From assembly GCA_963700985.1 (NCBI GenBank), contig OY969554.1:704001-768000 (forward strand): 64,000 nucleotides of DNA, written 5' to 3'. This document shows, one piece after another, positions 4,217 through 31,535 of the stretch (its first letter is position 1; each line of letters begins with the position of its first letter). Source of the DNA: an uncultured Chlamydiales bacterium. Its GTDB lineage: Bacteria > Chlamydiota > Chlamydiia > Chlamydiales > Rhabdochlamydiaceae. The translations under genes were made by a program, and so were the position numbers. The notes below the pieces were generated by a model, which searched no databases, had not been told where the DNA came from, and saw only the letters and a program-made list of their open reading frames with translations.

Positions 4217-4225
4217 TTCTAAGAA

Positions 4226-4403
4226 TTTACCACAGAGAACACAGAGTTAAGAAAAGATTGTTTTTTCGCGAGCGAAGCAAAAAAACAATACTCTCTCGGC
4301 TTCGCCGACGTTTAGGAGGCGAGGAAATGTCTTTTTTTTGTTTCACTTACAAAAAAAAGAGTTCCTTTTCTTCACTCTGTGCTCTCTGTGTCTCTGTGGT
4401 TAA
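4226..4403. repeat. Palindromic intergenic repeat (ACCACAGAG...CTCTGTGGT ends), copy 1
   Basis: Terminal inverted CACAGAG arrays and internal hairpins; related copy at 25291-25461. Confidence 0.85.
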
Positions 4404-4416
4404 TCTTCAAAATGAC

Positions 4417-5313
4417 TTAAAGGCGAGTGGTGATAGACACGCGACCGTCTTCATCCACCAGTATAGAGTTCTCAGCTTGAGCTACGAATCCGTGTGCTTC
4501 TTCAATCAAAGGAGCATAGCCCGCAATTATCTCTGAGCGAAGCAGCTCTTTCACAGCAGTTTTAACCTCCGACAGGCTGAGGCCTTCTTCTAAAAGATCA
4601 TGCAAGGCAAAAGGCAGCCCATTGAACGTCTTGATTTTTATAAGCAGCAGCCGCACATGTGCTGAACGGGTAGACCCTTCTTTTATAAACGAAAAGATCA
4701 TCGGCATACCCTCATCATAAATCAAACCTTTTCCATTCGTGGCAAAAGGCTCAATTGCAAAGGTCATGCCTGGCTTAATCACAGCTGTTGAGCGATCTTC
4801 ATAATTAGGAATTGTGGGTGGCGTATGCACTTTGTAGTAACCCAGCCCATGTCCGCCTAAATTTTTGATTGGTGAAAGCCCAAATGAAGAGATCGTCTCA
4901 TCGATAATCTTGCCTACTAAACGAATGGGCATGCCCACTTTAATGCTACGCTCTGCATTCAAAAGCGCTTTTTCAGCGGCATCGATGATATTCTGATGCT
5001 TACCCGAAAGATCAACTGAAGTCGCACAATCGCCAATTGCCCCATTAAAACAGACGCCGATATCCAGTTTCACTAGCTGATCTGAAAAAATGATCTCTTC
5101 ATCAGGCCCAGGCAAGAAATGTGCCGCTACTTCATTCAAAGCAATCTGAGGCGGAAAAGCAGGGATCGCGCCCAACTCTTGAATCTTTTGCCTAACCTTG
5201 GCAATCACCTCGTTATAAGTGGCTCCAGGCTTGATTAGAGCAAGACCATAGGCCCGCACTTGACCAGCCAATTTACCTGCTTGTAGAAAGTCTTGCTTAT
5301 ACTTTTGATTCAT
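4417..5313 (-). CDS. map: Methionine aminopeptidase, type II (archaeal/eukaryotic type)
   Basis: PAFP, NEVAAHF, KLDIG, GDCA, NLGGHGL, FAIEPFAT, helical insert with LPF, VAQAEN; D-D-H-E-E ligands present; start could be 5337. Confidence 0.9.
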   Translation of the reverse strand: MNQKYKQDFLQAGKLAGQVRAYGLALIKPGATYNEVIAKVRQKIQELGAIPAFPPQIALNEVAAHFLPGPDEEIIFSDQLVKLDIGVCFNGAIGDCATSVDLSGKHQNIIDAAEKALLNAERSIKVGMPIRLVGKIIDETISSFGLSPIKNLGGHGLGYYKVHTPPTIPNYEDRSTAVIKPGMTFAIEPFATNGKGLIYDEGMPMIFSFIKEGSTRSAHVRLLLIKIKTFNGLPFALHDLLEEGLSLSEVKTAVKELLRSEIIAGYAPLIEEAHGFVAQAENSILVDEDGRVSITTRL

Positions 5314-5506
5314 GCTTTCTATCTTACTTATAGCCAAATAGATAGCAACAAAAACGTTATATCAAGTGTTTCGCTATGAACTTTTAGCGCGAACATCACA
5401 ACTTATTAACACACAATATCTTACAACTTACAACCTGTAAAGATTTATATTTAAAATAATTGCTAGCTATATTATAATTATTATTAAAGATAACAAAGAG
5501 ATCATT

Positions 5507-6451
5507 ATGACAAACAAAGTTGGTTTAAAAGACCTTTTAGTAATGCAGCCCAATGATGCTACTACCACAGGCATCAAAAATTACGTAGAGGGTGGCGCTA
5601 GCTTAAAAAAGATTACGCGTGTCGTAAAACAGATCATGTCCAATCCGAATTTCAGCAGGGCAGAGTTAATCAACGCTAAAAATCACTTCGTGGCTGCAAT
5701 GAACGCCAAAAAAGCCTGCTTAGATAATGAATATAAAAGCTCATGGAAGATCAAAAAGATCTTTCTCGATGTTTACAATTTCGTGTGCGCTCAGCTTGGA
5801 CGCGGGTCTTACCAAGAGGCATTTTCTATTTATCGAGAACTTGAGCAAGAGATCCTCTCCGACTTCTATGCAGAGAATAGCGCGTATTTTCGGGTAAAAG
5901 ATGCTGATCTGCGAAAAAACACACTAAAATCTGCGGACCCGGTTGAGGCTGCTAAAATTGCAAGAGATGAGGCCATCGACGTTGCAGTAAAAGACATCGG
6001 ACGCAAATCAGAGATTATTTATTTCAAAGGCAAATCCTATCCGAATAAAGAAGAAGACCGCCAAATGGTCGGTCATGCTCTATTTAATACCGCGCACAAG
6101 GTCGTTGACAGACTAATCGCCGACCTGGCCGCGGATGACTTCTCTTCAGACGAGATTACAGAGATTCTTGCCAATTGCCATCAAGGCGTAGCCACAAATG
6201 CTTTAGCAGGGCCGAATATGTTCATCTTAAATTCATTCCCTGAGTCAGGCTTTATAGTTACCGGCAACAGCGAATTATTGAAGACCATACGAGTGCCTTT
6301 TCATATCGAACGTGAGGGTCAACATACTGTTGTCAAAGCTGAATACCCACTTAAGTTGTTCAACCCTATATATAAAGTTTCCCATGCTATTGAGGCCAAA
6401 ATCCGAGCGAATATCAGCACTTCGAAAGTCGACTGCTCTTTTGAAGGTTAA
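5507..6451 (+). CDS. Hypothetical protein
   Basis: 314-aa ORF with ATG start after an AT-rich promoter-like region; no family recognised. Confidence 0.75.
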   Translation: MTNKVGLKDLLVMQPNDATTTGIKNYVEGGASLKKITRVVKQIMSNPNFSRAELINAKNHFVAAMNAKKACLDNEYKSSWKIKKIFLDVYNFVCAQLGRGSYQEAFSIYRELEQEILSDFYAENSAYFRVKDADLRKNTLKSADPVEAAKIARDEAIDVAVKDIGRKSEIIYFKGKSYPNKEEDRQMVGHALFNTAHKVVDRLIADLAADDFSSDEITEILANCHQGVATNALAGPNMFILNSFPESGFIVTGNSELLKTIRVPFHIEREGQHTVVKAEYPLKLFNPIYKVSHAIEAKIRANISTSKVDCSFEG

Positions 6452-6547
6452 GAGGATGTCTACAAACTGCCTTAAAACGTCTGTGCGTAATTCTTCTTCA
6501 CAAACAATTAGCTGTGCGCTAATTAGGAGTGACAAACAGAGAAACAG

Positions 6548-6949
6548 ATGCTCATTCCGCCTATTGGATTCGGTCGGCCTATTGTATCGGGACCAAGTGA
6601 ATTTGCTCCTCAGCAAGAGCTTAAAACACTTTTGGATACAATTGGCCAGATTCACAATCACATGTCACAGAATCGAAACAATCCAATCCTTCTAAATGGA
6701 CTGCACGGCGAGTTTCCAGAACTGGTTAAACAGATCGACCATTTTGCCTCTCAGCTCCCCTCTTCCCAGCAAGACGGCTTTAATACTCATCTGACCGACC
6801 TTAAATCGCAGATGCAAAAGTTCTATCAAACGCTTACAGGAAGCGGATCTAATGATCAGCAGCATTCTGCTAGCGTCGCAGTCGTGACTACACTGGCTTT
6901 GTTGCACAAAGACCTAGGCTTCCCCCCACCTAAGCACTCGTTCTACTAA
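6548..6949 (+). CDS. Hypothetical protein
   Basis: 133-aa ORF, ATG start, helical composition, fills the gap between neighbours. Confidence 0.6.
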   Translation: MLIPPIGFGRPIVSGPSEFAPQQELKTLLDTIGQIHNHMSQNRNNPILLNGLHGEFPELVKQIDHFASQLPSSQQDGFNTHLTDLKSQMQKFYQTLTGSGSNDQQHSASVAVVTTLALLHKDLGFPPPKHSFY

Positions 6950-7015
6950 TTGACTTAAGACATCTTATCCAATTATATTGCTTTGGCAAAACAACAATAC
7001 TTTTGCGAGGGTCTT

Positions 7016-7717
7016 ATGGCTGCAGCTTCTCTATATTCCCCTTTCCAGCGCTTTGTAATTCATGCATACACACAGTTTGAAAAAGACTATAAAAACCTAC
7101 AATCTCATATCAACTCGGCACAAGCGCTACTCAAACCCGAAAAAACATACGAAGAGTTCTTAAGCATCTTTCGTAAATTTATTGCCTTTCAGGGAGATTT
7201 TCCTGTCTATCGAGATGAAATCGTATTTCTAACTGAACCCTTTCCAGCAACACTCCAAACTTATCTTTTGCAACGCTTAGGTTACGTCTCAGATCTAGTG
7301 GAACTCACGCTTGGCTATGATATCCCAGTGGAGCGCGAACAAGCCGAAAAAGAGCTCCTAAACGGCAAAGTGCCCAAGGGGGGTTTGGCCAAAGATATCG
7401 TAGTAGCCGCAGGAGCGGGTTTTATAAATGGATTTCCGGTGTTCGGTGCGCTTGGAATCGGCTTAGCTGCTGCTGAGCATCTTCTCAGAGACGCTACGCC
7501 TGAAGAAACACAAAAACAGATCGAAAAAAACGAGTTGGTTCGAAAAATTAATGAGAGAACCAAAAGTGTCGTTATTCTTCATCTCGAAGCTCTCTATCAC
7601 AATCTAAAAGCAAATCAGCGAGAAAAAACGTGGGCAGCAAGACACGCTGTCATTCTTGCTCCAGCTGAGCCCTCTTTAGGACTTGAGCGATCAGAGGAGA
7701 AGAAACGCCAAAGCTAA
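7016..7717 (+). CDS. Hypothetical protein with a Gly/Ala-rich hydrophobic segment
   Basis: ATG 7016 after GAGG; segment IVVAAGAGFINGFPVFGALGIGLAAA; TTGACT-N18-TATATT upstream at 6950. Confidence 0.7.
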   Translation: MAAASLYSPFQRFVIHAYTQFEKDYKNLQSHINSAQALLKPEKTYEEFLSIFRKFIAFQGDFPVYRDEIVFLTEPFPATLQTYLLQRLGYVSDLVELTLGYDIPVEREQAEKELLNGKVPKGGLAKDIVVAAGAGFINGFPVFGALGIGLAAAEHLLRDATPEETQKQIEKNELVRKINERTKSVVILHLEALYHNLKANQREKTWAARHAVILAPAEPSLGLERSEEKKRQS

Positions 7718-7722
7718 GCTTC

Positions 7723-8448
7723 TTAAAGAATAACGCATAAACCAGAAGCTGGATTGGCTTTTTTCCCATTTTTCCATTCCACGACGGCCGTATTCTTTAC
7801 ACCGAATTGATCGATAAACATGGTCACCTTTTGTCCTGTCAACAGGTTTCCTTTTTTCCAGATTCCTGTTTCATAGCTTCCACCGGATTTTTCATAATAT
7901 CCTTGACCAGCAGCCGCGTCATCCGCCCAATTACCTTCATATTTATCCCCATTCCGTAATGTCATAATCCCTTGGCCGTGGCGATTACCAGCGACAAAAG
8001 CTCCCGTATATGACGTAAATATAGAGCCATAGTACTTCATTACTCCTTTGCCATGAGGTTTTCCATCACTAACCTCTCCCACGTATGTGTCTCCATTGGG
8101 AAATTTTATTGTCTCACCTTTAGATTCAAGATTGGGTAATACTAGATTGGGTAATACTACGCTATCCACATATCCGCCCATCTTTGTTTGCCATGACACG
8201 CTTGGCCACGAATCTGAGTCGGGAAATGCTATTCTATCGCCTTGGCGTGGAGGATTAAAAGGCTGCCCCTGACCGCGCATCACATTTGCAAATTGGGTTA
8301 CGTCAACTAGAACCGTATTTTGCGCAGGGGCGGGTGCTAGGCTGCTGGAGGTATATTTTTCATCCGACTTCGCTTTATAGCTTGCTGCTTGATCTGAAGA
8401 AGTCATTGATCCTGCTTTATAACTTGAGGATAGTGGCACTGTGCTCAT
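7723..8448 (-). CDS. MORN-repeat protein with C-terminal CaaX box (CVIL)
   Basis: YVGEVSDGKPHGKG, YTGAFVAGNRHGQG, YEGNWADD repeats; ATG 8448 after AAGGAG. Confidence 0.88.
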   Translation of the reverse strand: MSTVPLSSSYKAGSMTSSDQAASYKAKSDEKYTSSSLAPAPAQNTVLVDVTQFANVMRGQGQPFNPPRQGDRIAFPDSDSWPSVSWQTKMGGYVDSVVLPNLVLPNLESKGETIKFPNGDTYVGEVSDGKPHGKGVMKYYGSIFTSYTGAFVAGNRHGQGIMTLRNGDKYEGNWADDAAAGQGYYEKSGGSYETGIWKKGNLLTGQKVTMFIDQFGVKNTAVVEWKNGKKANPASGLCVIL

Positions 8449-8481
8449 ACAATTCTCCTTTTCTTGTTCTTGAAGTAGACA

Positions 8482-8499
8482 TTCCAAATCGATTTGGAA
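8482..8499. promoter_or_regulatory. Perfect 18-bp palindrome upstream of MORN gene 1 (candidate operator or leader hairpin)
   Basis: TTCCAAATCGATTTGGAA; one-mismatch copy at 13435-13452. Confidence 0.45.
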
Positions 8500-8666
8500 A
8501 ATTCGCAAACAGGCTAATAAAAAAGCAGCTACATCTCAAGAAAATGTTTAAAAGCTCAAAAAAATTATACTTGAAGTTTGTTAAGATTTTGTTAAGCTGG
8601 TGTCATTTCGACATGCTTTTGCATGCTGAATTTTTTGAACATCAAATTAAACTGGAGGCTTAATAT

Positions 8667-9128
8667 ATGGCATTCTCAATAAGACTCGCTCAAGGCATGA
8701 GGACACCTTTGTTTGCAGCTGCAAGACCTTTTACTCAGTTTTCGCAGTCTTTTCTAAAACCAACAATGCAATCTCATTTGGCGGCTGCGAGAAGTTTTTC
8801 CGCCTGCAGCAGTAAAAATCAAACCCCGCCTGATGCCCTCAAGACATTAGAAGGAAAAGAACAAAATTCCGTGAAAGGAACTGGAATTTTTCTTGTTCCA
8901 GACCCAGAAAAAGGCGTTCTAGCATGGAAATCTATCAGAGTGGCCAATCTAACATATCTTGATACAGTCAAACGCGGAGAAAACTGCAAAGCGCTAAAGT
9001 GGGTTCCTGAAACGCTGATGTCGTTTGCAGAAATCCAAAAGAATCAACCTGCCTGCGCAGGATTTAAGTGTAGTTCTCCTTGCCCTCATTTTTGTATATG
9101 CGGTGATGATGGTTTTCAATGTGTTTAG
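8667..9128 (+). CDS. Small protein with mitochondrial-presequence-like N-terminus and Cys-rich C-terminus
   Basis: GGAGG RBS; no acidic residue before D56; six Cys in the last 24 aa. Confidence 0.75.
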   Translation: MAFSIRLAQGMRTPLFAAARPFTQFSQSFLKPTMQSHLAAARSFSACSSKNQTPPDALKTLEGKEQNSVKGTGIFLVPDPEKGVLAWKSIRVANLTYLDTVKRGENCKALKWVPETLMSFAEIQKNQPACAGFKCSSPCPHFCICGDDGFQCV

Positions 9129-9240
9129 CATTCGTCATGACTCTTCCGGCAGCTATGAAGATCATGCCTTTGTCGAAATTGCCAGAACCTATAGGCACTT
9201 ATTACCGTAAGAAAAACACACGTTCAGATTCAGACAAACC

Positions 9241-9267
9241 AAGGGCGGAAGATTTCCGCCCTTTTTG
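9241..9267 (+). terminator. Hairpin AAGGGCGGAAGATTTCCGCCCTT followed by T-run (intrinsic terminator or REP-like)
   Basis: 10-bp stem followed by Ts; identical 23-mer at 12638-12660. Confidence 0.65.
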
Positions 9268-9392
9268 AGCCGTCAGCAATCGAGATGCCCCCCTTTCGCT
9301 GCAGCTTCAGCTTCAGCCATTGACTTTAGCTTCCTTCTCTCGTTAGACTATTTCCTCTTCAACAATTTTTTTATTTTTTAGAGGAGATTTTC

Positions 9393-12300
9393 ATGGCAGC
9401 AGTAGGAGCATCTAAACCAGTTCCGGGATTAGCGCACGGCGATTCTTCAACTATCCCACCCGGTCTGGCTGCAAGCCACACCTATCCTCGTTCGCCTTGG
9501 CTTTTCAGCAAAAGCCTATTTGAAAGGCTCAAAAAGCTAGAAGCTGCTGAAGCACCTAGAACTTTTACAGCCTGCACGATTGAAAGAAGCGATCCCGAAT
9601 ACAATTTTGTCCTGCAGTACTTTAATCACACCAAACCCGCAGGGCGCGCCATTAGAAGCATGCGCGCAATATATAACCCCGGGCTAACTCAAGGTTACGT
9701 AGCCATGCTCCGAAGTATCGAAGCGCGCGCTCCCAAACTTCGTGATACGTGGAAAGAAGAAGCGCCAATAGCACAGCGTGAAAAGACCATGAAAAGATGG
9801 GAAGCACAAGTTGCGCAGTTCTCCCCTATTCATATCAAGTCGTCCAAAAGAACAGATGTCCTAACACAGACTTATAATGTTCCTCTTTGGCATGCAACTG
9901 CGCGTGCGGATGACATCTGCGCCGATGGGTTTGCAATTTCTGGAAAACATCATCTTGTGGAGTCTTCAGCTAAAGTCGCAAAAGCCGGCACCTTTGCTAG
10001 TACAGATCTGGGTTTTTTCGGGAGTGCCGCCTATTTAACCAATAGCGTGCGTTATGCCGCTATGTACTATCCCGAAACCGTTCTTCTCGCCTGGGGCTGC
10101 ATGGGAAAACCTTATCCCGTAGTCAGCGATTTTCCTATTCCTAAGAAGGCAACTGACATGACCAAGCTAGAGGGACAAGGTGGCTACCAGCATTTCACAA
10201 CGCACTTCATTCCTGTACACTCTGCATATCCCAAAGATCCAACCAACATGATCTATCACCCTTGTTTTGAAACAGAGGTGCCCGAATGCGATGAGTACGC
10301 ATTTTTCTCAACCTTTCAAGTCTTACCCTACATTTGCATAGATCTAGGGATTGATTTTCCAGCTGCACCTTCAACACCTACTACAGTGCAGACTCTTTTA
10401 GATCTCGTTCTCAAACTCGTCGACAATCCCCAAATCGAACAAGATGCAGATCTAAACGCACTCTTATCTTCCAAAGCAGAGACGCTTCTCTCTACAGATG
10501 CTGCTGATCCCCTTTCTCCACAGGACCAAGAATTTTTCCGCAAAGTTCAGCGGCTTGTAAGCCCCGAAGGCACCCTCAGCCGTTTCATCAAGCAAAGCCT
10601 TCTCGCTAAGCCAAGCGGCGCCCCTAAGGAAAAACTTGAATACAAAAAACCTGCGCCCGTCGAAAAACCTTCGGCTTTGGCACCCGCAAAACCTGCTCTT
10701 GCGCCGTTAACTGGAGATGAATTTTTTGTTTTGTCTGGCGAAGTCAAAGATGGTGATGCCGAAGCTTTACGCTTGTTGAGAATGCATGCGGAGGCTGGAG
10801 AGGCAGGAGCACAAAGCTATCTTGGGTTTACGTACAGATATGGCTTAGGCGTAGCCAAGGATGAGCGAGAGGCTATGAAGTGGTACAAAATGGCTGCTGC
10901 GCAAGGAGATGCTGAAGCAGAAAGCGCACTCAAAGAATTGTCATCTCTAGATGAGAATGAGAAAGAGTCACCACTTGTAGAGTTAACCAAAGATCAATTG
11001 GATGCCTTGTTTAAGAAAGCTGATGAAGAAGCTTTGCGAACATTGAGATCCCATGCGGAAGCGGGAGAACCAGCTGCACAATCCACGCTTGGTGAGGTGT
11101 TTGAACAAGGCAAAGGCGTTCTTAAGGATGAAAGCCAGGCATTCCAATGGTATCAAAAGGTTGCTGAGCAAGGATTTGCCAGGGAACAATGTTGGCTTGG
11201 TGAAATGTGCGAACACGGCAAAGGTGTTACTAAGGATATCAATCGGGCAATTCACTGGTATAGACTTGCCGCTGCACAAGAAAATGCCGATGCAGAAAGC
11301 GCTCTTAAAAGATTAACAGCTCAGGACTCAGACGTAACAAAACCATTTGCAGTTACGCTAACATTAGATCAGCATAATGCCTTATATCTCAAAGCTCAAA
11401 AGGATGCCGCAGCTTTACGCACTTTGAGAACGCATGCAGAGGCTGGCGAGGTTGAGGCGCAATACAATCTCGGACTCATATACTCGCTTGGTTTAGGCAC
11501 TGTTGAGAATAAGCCAGAAGGTGATAAGTGGTTCAAACTGGCGATTAGGGGTTATAAGTTGCTTGCGGATCAAGGGGATGTGCATGCTTGTCACAATCTG
11601 GCAATGATGTTCTCAAGTGGCCAAGGCGTAACCGAAGATAAACATGAAGCCGCAAGATGGAGCCAATTGGCTGCTGAGCGTGGACATGCACCCTCACAGT
11701 ATTATCTGGGCTTGGGGTTTGAAGTAGGATCAAGTAGTGGTGGTAAAGATATCGAAATGGCGCGTTACTGGTATGGACTTGCTGCAAAACAAGGACATAC
11801 TGAAGCAGAGAAACATCTCAAAAATTTAGCGTCTTCCGAAAAAGTAGAACATAAAAAACCTGCCATCGTATCAGCTGCACCAAGTGCATCAATGACTTCC
11901 ATTGGCACAAAAGCCGTCGCAGCAATCAGTGCTATAGATCTAAAAAAACAGTTTCCAAAGCTGGAAATTTTCGATGGATCTGTTTGGGAAACACATGCGA
12001 ATCTAACAACTTTAGGCCTACATATAAGTGATGAACCACCTCTTAATGTAAGTCTCATCCCGTTCTTGAAAACGCTCTTTGCTTCTTGGAAAATAGAAGA
12101 TGACGCAGGAATTACGATTTTGACTCTACCAGCGGGGCTTACATTAAGAAAGCTCGCGAAAGTTGCAGTATCTCCTAAATGTGGCAATCCAACTAAACTA
12201 GAAGACATTTGGGAAAATGCCCTAAAAGCTCTCGGCGATGTTCCTGTCGAGAGAACATATAGAGTGGCAATCACAAATAATGTGCTTAAAGGAAGCAGAA

Positions 12301-12635
12301 AATTATCTGTAAATAACCAGTCAAGTCTTCAGGAAAGCGGGGGCACGCTCCCTGGAGTATTACCTGTAGCTGCTCTTTCTATTTTAACTTTTATAAGTTC
12401 TAAAATATCGTTTTTTAAAGGTCCAACCCGTTTATATGGCAACAAGCCATTGACCTACACCTATACTAATGAAAAGGTAGATGGGCAAACTTTGGTTGTT
12501 GGAGGGTTCCTGAACGGACCTACAATCACCCATCCTCTCTGGCCTGGGCCCGATATTATTTATGAAAAAATCGGTGGCGGAAGCATGAATAGGCTGTATG
12601 AAAATTCTGACTCGCATTCTGCTTTAGACGAATAG
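9393..12635 (+). CDS. Multidomain candidate effector: PARP-like ADP-ribosyltransferase, Sel1-like repeats, C-terminal domain of unknown function
   Basis: PLWHAT, TDLGFFGSAAYLTNSVRYA, DEYAFFSTFQVLPY; SLR units such as AQSYLGFTYRYGLGVAKDEREAMKWYKMAAAQG; GAGGAG RBS. Confidence 0.85.
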   Translation: MAAVGASKPVPGLAHGDSSTIPPGLAASHTYPRSPWLFSKSLFERLKKLEAAEAPRTFTACTIERSDPEYNFVLQYFNHTKPAGRAIRSMRAIYNPGLTQGYVAMLRSIEARAPKLRDTWKEEAPIAQREKTMKRWEAQVAQFSPIHIKSSKRTDVLTQTYNVPLWHATARADDICADGFAISGKHHLVESSAKVAKAGTFASTDLGFFGSAAYLTNSVRYAAMYYPETVLLAWGCMGKPYPVVSDFPIPKKATDMTKLEGQGGYQHFTTHFIPVHSAYPKDPTNMIYHPCFETEVPECDEYAFFSTFQVLPYICIDLGIDFPAAPSTPTTVQTLLDLVLKLVDNPQIEQDADLNALLSSKAETLLSTDAADPLSPQDQEFFRKVQRLVSPEGTLSRFIKQSLLAKPSGAPKEKLEYKKPAPVEKPSALAPAKPALAPLTGDEFFVLSGEVKDGDAEALRLLRMHAEAGEAGAQSYLGFTYRYGLGVAKDEREAMKWYKMAAAQGDAEAESALKELSSLDENEKESPLVELTKDQLDALFKKADEEALRTLRSHAEAGEPAAQSTLGEVFEQGKGVLKDESQAFQWYQKVAEQGFAREQCWLGEMCEHGKGVTKDINRAIHWYRLAAAQENADAESALKRLTAQDSDVTKPFAVTLTLDQHNALYLKAQKDAAALRTLRTHAEAGEVEAQYNLGLIYSLGLGTVENKPEGDKWFKLAIRGYKLLADQGDVHACHNLAMMFSSGQGVTEDKHEAARWSQLAAERGHAPSQYYLGLGFEVGSSSGGKDIEMARYWYGLAAKQGHTEAEKHLKNLASSEKVEHKKPAIVSAAPSASMTSIGTKAVAAISAIDLKKQFPKLEIFDGSVWETHANLTTLGLHISDEPPLNVSLIPFLKTLFASWKIEDDAGITILTLPAGLTLRKLAKVAVSPKCGNPTKLEDIWENALKALGDVPVERTYRVAITNNVLKGSRKLSVNNQSSLQESGGTLPGVLPVAALSILTFISSKISFFKGPTRLYGNKPLTYTYTNEKVDGQTLVVGGFLNGPTITHPLWPGPDIIYEKIGGGSMNRLYENSDSHSALDE

Positions 12636-12637
12636 TT

Positions 12638-12660
12638 AAGGGCGGAAGATTTCCGCCCTT
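12638..12660. terminator. Hairpin between convergent genes, identical to 9241-9263
   Basis: AAGGGCGGAAGATTTCCGCCCTT directly after the stop of the 1080-aa gene. Confidence 0.6.
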
Positions 12661-12690
12661 AGTGACCAATCAGATGATTCTGATGATGTT

Positions 12691-13401
12691 TTAGACGATA
12701 ACGCAGATCCTAACCTCTTGATGGATCCCAAAACATGGTCCACAGCACTCCGGACAGCCGCAATTGTGACCAGTATCACAATAATCGAGATGTCCATCTT
12801 TCCAAGGCTCTTCGGCAGATATATAGGCTCCACCAATATGTGGTACTAACTCTGTCTTCACACCGGTCCACAACTTATCATTTTTAAAGGTTCCTGCCTC
12901 GTAAGTGCCGCTCGTTCTTTGATATCGACCCTGACCTTCTAAACGGCCATTCACAAACTGACCTTCATATTTGTTTCCATTCGTCCATACTTTAGTTCCC
13001 TGGCCATGAGCGTTGCCATCGACAAAATCTCCATTATAGGTAGCAACATCAGAAGCGAAGTATTTCATCAATCCCTTGCCATGAGGTTTTCCATCTTTAA
13101 CATCTCCAGTGTATTTGTCTCCGTTTGGAAATGTTATCGTCTCAACTTTAGGTTCAAGACTAAGTGAAAGCGTTAAATCTTCTAGTTTTACACCCTGTTG
13201 CTGTCGGCTCTGTGCGGCCATCAACTGTGCAAAGAGCTTTGCATCGATTACAACGGTGTCTTGCGCAGGTGCGGATGATACGGTGCTGACACTCACAGAT
13301 GGGGGTACATATTTGCGATCTGACTCGGCGCCATAGCTTGTCGCTTGTGCTGACGCTGTAGATCCAGCGCTATAAGTTGAGGATAGTGGTACTGTACTCA
13401 T
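12691..13401 (-). CDS. MORN-repeat protein with Cys cluster and C-terminal CaaX box (CVIV)
   Basis: YTGDVKDGKPHGKG, YNGDFVDGNAHGQG, YEGQFVNGRLEGQG; paralog of 7723-8448; ATG 13401 after AAGGAG. Confidence 0.88.
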   Translation of the reverse strand: MSTVPLSSTYSAGSTASAQATSYGAESDRKYVPPSVSVSTVSSAPAQDTVVIDAKLFAQLMAAQSRQQQGVKLEDLTLSLSLEPKVETITFPNGDKYTGDVKDGKPHGKGLMKYFASDVATYNGDFVDGNAHGQGTKVWTNGNKYEGQFVNGRLEGQGRYQRTSGTYEAGTFKNDKLWTGVKTELVPHIGGAYISAEEPWKDGHLDYCDTGHNCGCPECCGPCFGIHQEVRICVIV

Positions 13402-13523
13402 AAAATTCTCCTTTTCTTGTTCTTGAAGTAGACATTCCAAATCGGTTTGGAAAATTCGCAAACAGGCTAATAAAAAATTGGCTATATCTCAAGAGAATAT
13501 TTAAGAAATTGTAAAGATTCTTC

Positions 13524-29989: not shown

Positions 29990-31402
29990 TTAATTCAGGC
30001 TGAAACAAGCGCGGAAAAACTGTGAAATCCATGAGCAGAAAGCGCTTAGGCACTCCATCAGACAATTCAGCATAGATTGAAGGCAACCAGACTCTTCTGC
30101 TAAAACTGGGAAGATGAAATGGGCTACAGGGCCAGCTTTGGGTGGTATTAAGATTTGTTCCGGTGGAGTTTGGTTAAAGTCTATTCGAATGAGTTTTAGT
30201 TTAATTGAATTTTTTTCTTCAATAGTAAGAACTCCATCAAAAAACTGAAAGTTGCTGAATTCAAAATTAGTTGCAGCACTAGCTAATCTACGTCGTGCTT
30301 TGGTTACGAGATCAAAACAATCTACAGCTTGCGCTGAACAGTGTAAGACGGTGTTTCCGAATGATATAAGATTCGAACAATTCGTATCCAACGAGATCGG
30401 GGTCTTAATGAAATCAACAGGTTTCTCAGCAAACCTCAATCTATCGCGAAGTTCCAAGACAAAACTTTCTTTGTTCTTTATTGCCCACCCCCTTGCCGTT
30501 CGCACAAGAGACGTACAATCTATGTATTGAGGAAGACTCTCTTCTAATTTTAAAGTTTGAAGATTAAAAACTCTAACACCTGGAAAATCTTCATCCATAA
30601 TAGTTACAACCACCATGCCATCTTGGCCAAAAACTGATCTCTCCTCATTTTTTGATCCCGTGGGTGGAAATGGAATTTGTTTCTCTAATTTTAAGGTGTG
30701 AAGATCCAAGACTTCAAGTATCGAGACATGCTTATCTGGACTGATGTCGTGAATTTCAGCAAAAAACCTAGGCGCATGGATTATTTTATCATCAATAATT
30801 CTTACCTCAGTGGCTTTTGGTAATTCTCTAATTTTTGCGGTTTTATTCGCTTTAAAATCCCAAACGCAAAGATTCATCCCCTTATCACCGAATTTGTCAT
30901 CAACTGGATCAAGCTTCATTACGACTCGATCATGTGCGATCCCTACATACTCATGTCTAGGATTCCTTTCTTCTGTTGGTGAGAGCTTGCTAAACCAGAG
31001 TCGAGCTCCAGCACAATCCAACGTTTTAATTACGGCACGCGTTCTAGAATCCCTTACATCAATCGAAGTATCACGAACTGTGATAAATACATTTACCTGC
31101 TGCTTGGAATAGTAATTACACTCTCCAGCTTCCAAAGATGTTTCATGCCTTTGCCATGCTCCTGCACGCATTAAGTTCGCTTGTATTTTTTCAAAATGAG
31201 CAGTGTAACGTGCTCTTAGGGTTTCTAATGGAAGTTGAGGTACAGAAGGTAGAAAGCTTCGACGAATCCGTTCCCATAAAACAGTCTCAGCCACTAGCCG
31301 GAAACGTTTGGAAACTTGGGTACATGTGAGGAGTTCATCTCTCTTTAAATAAGATAAAGAAGCACCCCAGAGATCATTCGACGCCTTGTCTACCACTGAC
31401 AT
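29990..31402 (-). CDS. F-box protein with beta-propeller-like region and Cys-rich amphipathic tail
   Basis: LSYLKRDELLTCTQVSKRFRLVA F-box; LCVWDF-type strands; GGAGG before ATG 31402. Confidence 0.8.
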   Translation of the reverse strand: MSVVDKASNDLWGASLSYLKRDELLTCTQVSKRFRLVAETVLWERIRRSFLPSVPQLPLETLRARYTAHFEKIQANLMRAGAWQRHETSLEAGECNYYSKQQVNVFITVRDTSIDVRDSRTRAVIKTLDCAGARLWFSKLSPTEERNPRHEYVGIAHDRVVMKLDPVDDKFGDKGMNLCVWDFKANKTAKIRELPKATEVRIIDDKIIHAPRFFAEIHDISPDKHVSILEVLDLHTLKLEKQIPFPPTGSKNEERSVFGQDGMVVVTIMDEDFPGVRVFNLQTLKLEESLPQYIDCTSLVRTARGWAIKNKESFVLELRDRLRFAEKPVDFIKTPISLDTNCSNLISFGNTVLHCSAQAVDCFDLVTKARRRLASAATNFEFSNFQFFDGVLTIEEKNSIKLKLIRIDFNQTPPEQILIPPKAGPVAHFIFPVLAEESGCLQSMLNCLMECLSAFCSWISQFFRACFSLN

Positions 31403-31535
31403 AATAACCTCCAATTTTTAAGGATAATTTAATAGTTCGAACAATTTCAGAGATAGATATTAAAAACTTTAAAAAGCGAAAGGCTAGGTTTTAAAACAAC
31501 GCTTAGGGAATAATGCCCTTCAATTCGGAGGAATC

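Follow-up and report, generated by a model that had tools for sequence, protein, structure and literature searches.

Host prenylation of bacterial effectors is established for AnkB and the Pel proteins of Legionella (PMC2916131, PMC13081727, PMC7542358) and for SifA and GtgE of Salmonella (PMC4951486, PMC13423502). In the intracellular bacterium Legionella pneumophila a cohort of effectors (AnkB and the Pel/CMP proteins) combines eukaryote-type domains with a C-terminal CaaX box; they are type IV substrates, numbering seven per strain and at least 11 over four strains (PMC2916131, PMC13081727). AnkB joins a repeat domain to the box CVLC, which is farnesylated. The two Salmonella effectors are exported through a type III system and carry a C-terminal cysteine motif that the host modifies (PMC4951486, PMC13423502); SifA is geranylgeranylated by GGTase-I and S-acylated, and GtgE ends in CTIL. 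They are single effectors with other folds, and the consulted parts of these reports describe no paralog family or genome-wide cohort. In the mostly open-access literature that we searched, we found no report of a CaaX or prenylated effector in the Chlamydiota or on a MORN scaffold, and in silico lists may include some. Chlamydial prenyltransferase domains are discussed, in the available text of one preprint, as acting on host CAAX proteins and not in terms of CaaX boxes on chlamydial proteins (bioRxiv 2024.11.28.625222). The F-box and BTB families of environmental chlamydiae (PMC4209131) offer a different parallel, being lineage-specific paralogs with eukaryote-like domains and birth-and-death evolution whose representatives had working type III signals, although neither 'prenyl' nor 'MORN' occurs in the available text of that paper.

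We describe here two MORN-repeat genes, A and B, whose products are candidate members of this class and, by analogy, would work like effectors of the AnkB and SifA type. They lie in a window of 64,000 nucleotides, the whole stretch of DNA analysed, within a genome of one 2.07-Mb contig that is 99% complete. PdhA encoded in the window matches, at 64–82%, records titled Chlamydiae, Rhabdochlamydiaceae or Parachlamydiales, plus others with looser labels, and we infer a Rhabdochlamydiaceae-like chlamydia. An injection system is indicated by these chlamydial relatives together with three type III export subunits, SctU, SctV and SctW, each above its NCBIfam cut-off.

Both genes are on the minus strand, and both end in CaaX boxes as a sequence-only reading of this DNA had proposed. 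Gene A (7723..8448) encodes 241 residues ending in CVIL (Cys238, 7726..7737, minus strand), the same tetrapeptide as in yeast Rho5, and its C-terminus reads ...KNGKKANPASGLCVIL-stop (SGLCVIL at the end). Gene B (12691..13401) encodes 236 residues ending in CVIV (Cys233, 12694..12705, minus strand), with the C-terminus ...CDTGHNCGCPECCGPCFGIHQEVRICVIV-stop (EVRICVIV at the end); its homolog P0002, a metagenomic protein, also ends in CVIV. Each start is supported by an AAGGAG located 6 nt 5' of the ATG. Pfam MORN (PF02493) is matched by A with E 8e-11 (41.6 bits) and by B with E 7e-16 (57.5 bits), the cut-off being 22.5. The two proteins are 43% identical over 234 columns, in an alignment that stops short of the tails. 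One DNA sequencing run spans both tails and lists no differences; it may be the source sample and is left out of the evidence. No RNA run containing the genes was listed.

A, B and P0002 form one group in a tail-free MORN tree (support 92). The ∼100 nt upstream of A (8451..8551, minus strand) and of B (13404..13504, minus strand) are 93% identical and recur nowhere else in the genome at that length, which argues that A and B are a local duplicate pair, apparently within a chlamydial family of small MORN proteins; the upstream region is not shared by the other tagged genes of the genome. The interval between lpxD and pdhC that houses the pair (4217..13523) is 9.3 kb long here and 85–6966 bp in the 44 of 80 related loci where both flanking genes are present, and none of the 80 loci has a MORN match. 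This interval is a variable hotspot across related chlamydiae.

Other open reading frames in and near the interval have features of their own. A 153-aa frame (8667-9128, plus strand) has an N-terminus rich in Arg, Ser and Ala without acidic residues, which by eye we take to be like a mitochondrial presequence, and a Cys-rich C-terminus; it has no Pfam or NCBIfam match and one paralog in the genome (1538170-1538430). Between A and B sits a 1080-aa Sel1-repeat protein (9393-12635, plus strand) that shares its first 430 residues with four other large proteins of this genome; by eye these residues resemble a PARP-type ADP-ribosyltransferase motif set, with no profile match. The same interval contains a 133-aa frame (6548-6949, plus strand) with a weak v-SNARE N-terminal match below the cut-off (E 1e-4). 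Elsewhere in the window, at ∼31160-31460 (735259-735357 of the genome, minus strand), an F-box-like match above the Pfam cut-off falls in a 475-codon frame; there are eight such matches in the genome.

The boxes of A and B belong to a much larger set. A count of CaaX ends across the proteome, which the sequence-only reading had suggested as a check, bore the proposal out: among 1899 genes called by a simple hexamer model, the pattern C[VIA][IV][LMV], tailored after seeing the data, ends 15 against 0.08 expected from its internal rate, and it occurs at most once at any of the offsets 1–40 from the protein end. CVIL alone stands at the stop of nine genes (0.01 expected), and the looser, less tailored C[AVILM][AVILM]x at the stop of 17 against 2.66 expected (p 4e-9). 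Cysteine occupies position -4 in 47 of the 1899 genes, compared with 17–30 at the other positions from -1 to -15, while only three of 34,259 non-gene frames carry the terminal motif. The same tripeptides follow S, A, T, G or V at no stop in this proteome and L at three; the enrichment thus appears specific to Cys. Tail codons vary synonymously among the tagged genes, and no DNA tail cassette shared between unrelated tagged genes was found when looked for, which together point to selection on the peptide. On these counts the C-terminal motif appears to be under selection and not a product of chance.

With one further protein ending in CTIV the tagged set comes to 16 proteins in five BLAST groups, comprising five of the MORN family, six with leucine-rich repeats (LRR), one GNAT, a group of three, and one single protein without a Pfam match. 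Fourteen of the 16 end in L or M, where AnkB ends in CVLC. Compared with Legionella, this is a member of the Chlamydiota with a type III system and 16 tagged proteins in 2.07 Mb, built on MORN and LRR scaffolds and known from sequence alone. No F-box, as found in AnkB, was detected in the tagged LRR proteins or in any other tagged gene of the genome. Two MORN relatives have unusual ends. In an 87-aa remnant (1697041-1697304) CVIL comes straight after the N-terminal part and half of one repeat. In another paralog (1849-2730 of locus L174, ∼1895349-1896232 of the genome) seven further residues, three of them Cys, come after CAIL and bury the box; this gene adjoins a paralog ending in CAIL.

Membership of the pair in a genome-wide cohort and, as shown below, in a phylum-wide family was missed by the sequence-only reading. 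Homologs keep the box, the opposite of the non-conservation that would have counted against that reading. Among 120 database matches to A, Cys at -4 is present in A, B and P0002 only, and in none of the other 117 MORN matches. A profile from an 18-row alignment was run over 400 genomes of the phylum and matched 74; the loci examined were 30 returned, 40 regions picked from the 150 matches listed out of a set with 205 more, and 12 earlier loci. Among the matches listed, and with seeds included, 93 closed MORN open reading frames were obtained, in which Cys at -4 is found in 22 of the 49 that are 350 aa or shorter and in none of the 44 longer ones. The profile was then rebuilt without the tail to avoid circularity. 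When 76 non-seed chlamydial MORN proteins were ranked in this tail-blind manner, seven of the eight with Cys at -4 fell in the top nine (p 8e-5). Ranking of 378 non-seed database proteins placed Cys at -4 in 11 of the top 12, one of which is also in the genome set, versus five of the 366 others, none aliphatic; this list was selected by a profile that included tails and may favour CaaX bearers. A search of 50% representatives, used as a control, returned long multi-repeat MORN proteins only, with Cys at -4 in one of 150, and the ESM Atlas gave generic MORN clusters only, under 0.9.

Cys at -4 is represented in six coded families of the order (f1, f5, f17, f22, f23 and f37), the f5 case (CGCM) being the weakest. 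Across the 33 members that have it, a2 is always I, L, V, C or M; a1 varies, being Thr or Ser in 18 and Val in nine, and X is L in 16, V in four, Q in four, I in three, M in three, F in two and T in one. A restricted a2, a varying a1 and an X that is often Leu make up the pattern of prenyltransferase substrates (PMC10320760). The motif is kept while the sequence just upstream diverges in 25 of 29 clusters at 50% identity, in a set to whose selection the motif itself contributed. Cys at -4 is missing from the annotated frame of four of the 38 members; one of these four genes is interrupted by a stop codon, beyond which the next segment in frame closes with CTIQ. P0285 has a longer tail. The tag thus seems dispensable in some members. 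On a MORN tree (130 rows, 96 MORN columns, quick stage) the CaaX label is clustered, requiring 12 changes against 21.4 when shuffled (0 of 500). A single origin of the tag is neither shown nor excluded by this tree.

Counts of tagged proteins in related genomes come from limited DNA patterns with frame checks and without a coding model, and are lower bounds: long open reading frames with such tails number at least seven in G003 (a MORN protein, four LRR proteins and two unknown by Pfam), at least five in G004, at least four in G001 and at least three in G040. Of the 17 matches in G192, 15 were examined, and these yielded no such frame other than its two MORN proteins; in G007, G013, G018, G022 and G024 all 21 DNA matches to CVIL or CVIF followed by a stop lie in frames of 108 codons or fewer. 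DNA-pattern counts alone were rejected as a measure of the cohort, most CVIL-stop matches in relatives being short non-gene frames. The cohort appears strongest in this genus and patchy outside it. Two side observations were made in G004: one 15-mer is present in seven places, closes no long open reading frame where fetched and probably belongs to a repeat element, and two adjacent coiled-coil-like frames (locus L309, G004:C3 163484-166498) end in a basic stretch followed by CVVM, a clearer polybasic-plus-CaaX case than gene A.

The proteins themselves have a simple architecture. In A a MORN beta-hairpin sheet (residues ∼112-226; 7771..8115, minus strand) is modelled by AlphaFold with pLDDT above 90. 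It follows a low-confidence N-terminal region (8116..8448, minus strand) that is rich in Ser, Thr and Pro with one predicted helix (50-59), is probably disordered, and is a candidate type III secretion signal. Confidence falls again in the last residues, and the tail lies outside the folded sheet. B has MORN repeats at residues ∼87-203 (12793..13143, minus strand; Pfam and alignment) and a Ser/Thr/Pro-rich N-terminal region (13144..13401, minus strand) with the family YG[SATG] motif (SYGA) and a decayed PL motif. Tandem 23-residue repeats above the Pfam cut-off and the beta-hairpin sheet in the model identify the proteins as MORN proteins, and the top Foldseek matches of A are MORN-type folds only. 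The predicted fold and its hairpin repeat resemble eukaryotic MORN proteins such as MORN1, RSPH1 and junctophilin (PMC7725318; PDB 6t4r, 6t4d, 7rw4). A and B differ from these in being bacterial and short, with a long, probably disordered N-terminus and a CaaX box, and the other MORN matches have no aliphatic CaaX. MORN repeats act in protein interactions, and a protein made of MORN repeats alone showed no membrane binding (PMC7725318), so that a lipid anchor would fill a real gap.

Neither protein has a hydrophobic segment (maximum KD19 0.73 and 0.75 for A and B). By Ser/Thr/Pro content the first 30 residues rank at the 97.5th (A) and 98.4th (B) percentile of the proteome, a crude proxy for export by which four of the 16 tagged proteins fall below the 60th percentile. 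Such Ser/Thr/Pro-rich, non-hydrophobic and seemingly disordered N-termini fit type III export. The family plan is thus a predicted disordered N-terminus, a MORN sheet, a flexible tail and the CaaX box.

The sequence-only reading had also assigned a second membrane signal to each paralog, a basic patch in A and a Cys cluster in B, and the lysines and six cysteines are present as described. The lysines did not hold up as a signal. K226, K229 and K230 of A (7759..7773, minus strand) belong to the last MORN strand and its turn, where the Gly is nearly invariant in the alignment; from -24 to -5 A has four K/R, a number reached by 25% of the proteome, and B has one. A distinct polybasic stretch of the K-Ras4B type before the box was rejected, A being at background and B having the single K/R. 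The cysteines fared better in part. B has five Cys from -24 to -5 and A none, and the cluster (C208-C223; 12733..12780, minus strand) offers candidate S-acylation sites. An upstream Cys is the family norm, with at least one from -24 to -5 in 17 of 22 members versus a 20% background, and the GCPxCCG core of the cluster is kept in P0002, the one close homolog. However, 16 of 22 members have a Cys within -5 to -9 (5.8% of other proteins), and in B the nearest extra Cys is at -14, outside that range. Within the tagged cohort of this genome six of 16 have an upstream Cys. The spacing varies between members and keeps no common register, a pattern closer to that expected of S-acylation than of a metal site. 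A, with no upstream Cys, may be the more weakly anchored paralog.

We consider it likely, at a probability of roughly 0.7, that A and B are secreted MORN adaptors or effectors that are prenylated by the host. This reading is drawn from the selection and conservation of the motif, the presence of type III genes, the position of the tail outside the sheet and the lack of a detectable prenyltransferase of the bacterium's own. The proteins would probably be exported through the type III system, and in the host cytosol a CaaX prenyltransferase would add an isoprenoid to the Cys at -4. CVIL, CAIL, CTIL, CIIM and CVIM are motifs of yeast Rho5, Cdc42, Rsr1 and Rho3/4 and of human K-Ras4B; Rho5 (CVIL) is geranylgeranylated in yeast, and a reporter carrying CVIL was modified in yeast cells lacking FTase, as seen by a shift, and allowed Rho1-dependent growth (PMC11304957). 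An X of L, F, M or I favours GGTase-I (PMC10320760). The point in the sequence-only reading that X=Leu favours GGTase-I therefore suits A, but B has X = Val; CVIV has a published Ras heat-map score of 17.0 versus 16.8 for CVIA and 8.4 for CVLS. GGTase-I would serve for CVIL and for most of the tagged proteins, and either enzyme may serve for CVIV. Host Rce1 and ICMT would then trim and methylate the tail, and host S-acylation of the upstream Cys would make the attachment firmer in B and the majority of the family. Anchored in this way at a host membrane, most likely that of the inclusion or an endosome, the protein would turn its MORN sheet to the cytosol and there bind host proteins. The same tag would act on at least 16 proteins of five sequence groups.

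A more elaborate reading, which we regard as doubtful, takes the family for a lipid-anchored sorting connector, in which a C-terminal prenyl and palmitoyl anchor is combined with an N-terminal dileucine that engages host AP clathrin adaptors and a MORN sheet that grips cargo. The viral connector Nef follows the same logic; here it would be built from unrelated parts. Family N-termini contain PL[LIM] in 11 of 38 members versus 54 of 1899 genome proteins and YG[STAG] in 16 of 38 versus 47 of 1899. The strict acidic dileucine [DE]xxxL[LI] is found in seven of 38 (five of 29 clusters) versus 84 of 1899 and one of 67 other chlamydial MORN proteins, counts whose p-values overstate the case because the members share ancestry and their N-termini played a part in finding them. 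Examples are EKTPLL, ERTPLL, EKQSLL and ERQPLL, often followed by YG[SATG]. This consensus binds AP-1, AP-2 and AP-3, and CLN3 and mucolipin-1 combine an acidic dileucine with C-terminal prenylation or palmitoylation, as some family members would (PMC5297682); they are multi-pass membrane proteins, whereas here the strict motif is confined to the seven of 38, neither of the pair among them. All that A and B show is VPLSS, with SYGA kept in B, and the dileucine appears to have decayed in both. The dileucine-like motif could instead be part of a secretion or chaperone signal. If the connector reading is true, the pair would be derived within the family, having retained its anchor but not the strict dileucine, and host geranylgeranylation would be a general membrane tag for 16 proteins of this genome.

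It is improbable that the secreted, prenylated tails are decoys that compete with host Rho, Rac and Ras GTPases for GGTase-I or chaperones, with the domain playing a minor part. The tails do equal those of eukaryotic small GTPases, and short tagged frames exist, including the 87-aa remnant that retains CVIL; yet the tag is borne by a variety of interaction domains, the MORN sheets show no loss of integrity or conservation, and the upstream Cys suggests stable membrane residence.

Modification or processing by the bacterium itself, through Rce1-like proteases or an unrecognised prenyltransferase and either inside the cell or after export, seems comparably improbable. Six Rce1-like genes are present in the genome. 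Two short ones (1275245-1275859 and 1919285-1919893) have intact EExxxR, FxxxH and HxxxN motifs and an N-terminus unlike that of the core copy, Ser/Thr/Pro-rich in the first, and are possibly exported CaaX proteases, a weak and post hoc suggestion. Bacterial Rce1 homologs process Cys-containing C-terminal signals (bioRxiv 2023.06.07.544157), and another environmental chlamydia encodes 15 proteins with prenyltransferase domains (bioRxiv 2024.11.28.625222). However, those bacterial signals, MYXO-CTERM and its kin, combine the Cys motif with a transmembrane helix and an Arg-rich cluster (bioRxiv 2023.06.07.544157), both absent in A and B; assignment of A and B to the prokaryotic Cys-containing CTERM signals was ruled out for want of a hydrophobic segment. 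Rce1-like genes also occur in 40 of 41 genomes, including some where no CaaX cohort is visible, and in this genome none lies within 10 kb of a tagged gene. The genome has no PPTA above the cut-off and no ICMT; it also has no Prenyltrans match, a weak blank in that the search was silent in control genomes too. Separately, in both G003 and G040 a CaaX gene has an Rce1-like match as a near neighbour, at a distance of ∼2 kb or less.

We think it very unlikely that the tail is a non-lipid ligand, either a PDZ-type C-terminal motif or, for B, a metal-binding Cys cluster. PDZ classes are [ST]-x-hydrophobic or hydrophobic-x-hydrophobic, and both the Thr, Ser and Val at a1 and the mostly hydrophobic X would suit them, as six clustered Cys in B would suit a metal. 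But to our knowledge PDZ ligands need no Cys at -4, and Cys is here the fixed residue, which S, A, T, G or V never replaces in this proteome; a metal site is also at odds with upstream spacing that is out of register. Finally, that the motif is chance or a neutral leftover of genes taken from a eukaryotic host, MORN and LRR domains being common in eukaryotes and the best solved-structure matches eukaryotic, appears largely refuted by conservation, since the motif persists across those 25 of 29 partly motif-chosen clusters and on unrelated domains, the other 117 MORN matches have no Cys at -4, and the enrichment is far beyond chance.

Host prenylation thus remains the preferred reading of A and B. 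CTIL, the tail of GtgE, also ends some members of this family. Legionella and Salmonella already provide examples of the mechanism, whereas in the literature searched we saw none from the Chlamydiota or with a MORN scaffold. Chlamydiae place proteins in host membranes through hydrophobic inclusion-membrane segments. The CaaX family and the 16-member cohort point to a second membrane route, by way of host lipid transfer, that would be independent of those in Legionella and Salmonella, and they supply an example from bacteria of MORN repeats that would depend on a separate anchor for membrane attachment. Searching for the CaaX tail may be an easy way to pick out candidate effectors of uncultured chlamydiae, whose short proteins could be tested in yeast or Dictyostelium without culturing the bacterium, and the tail would predict the host enzyme on which the symbiont depends.
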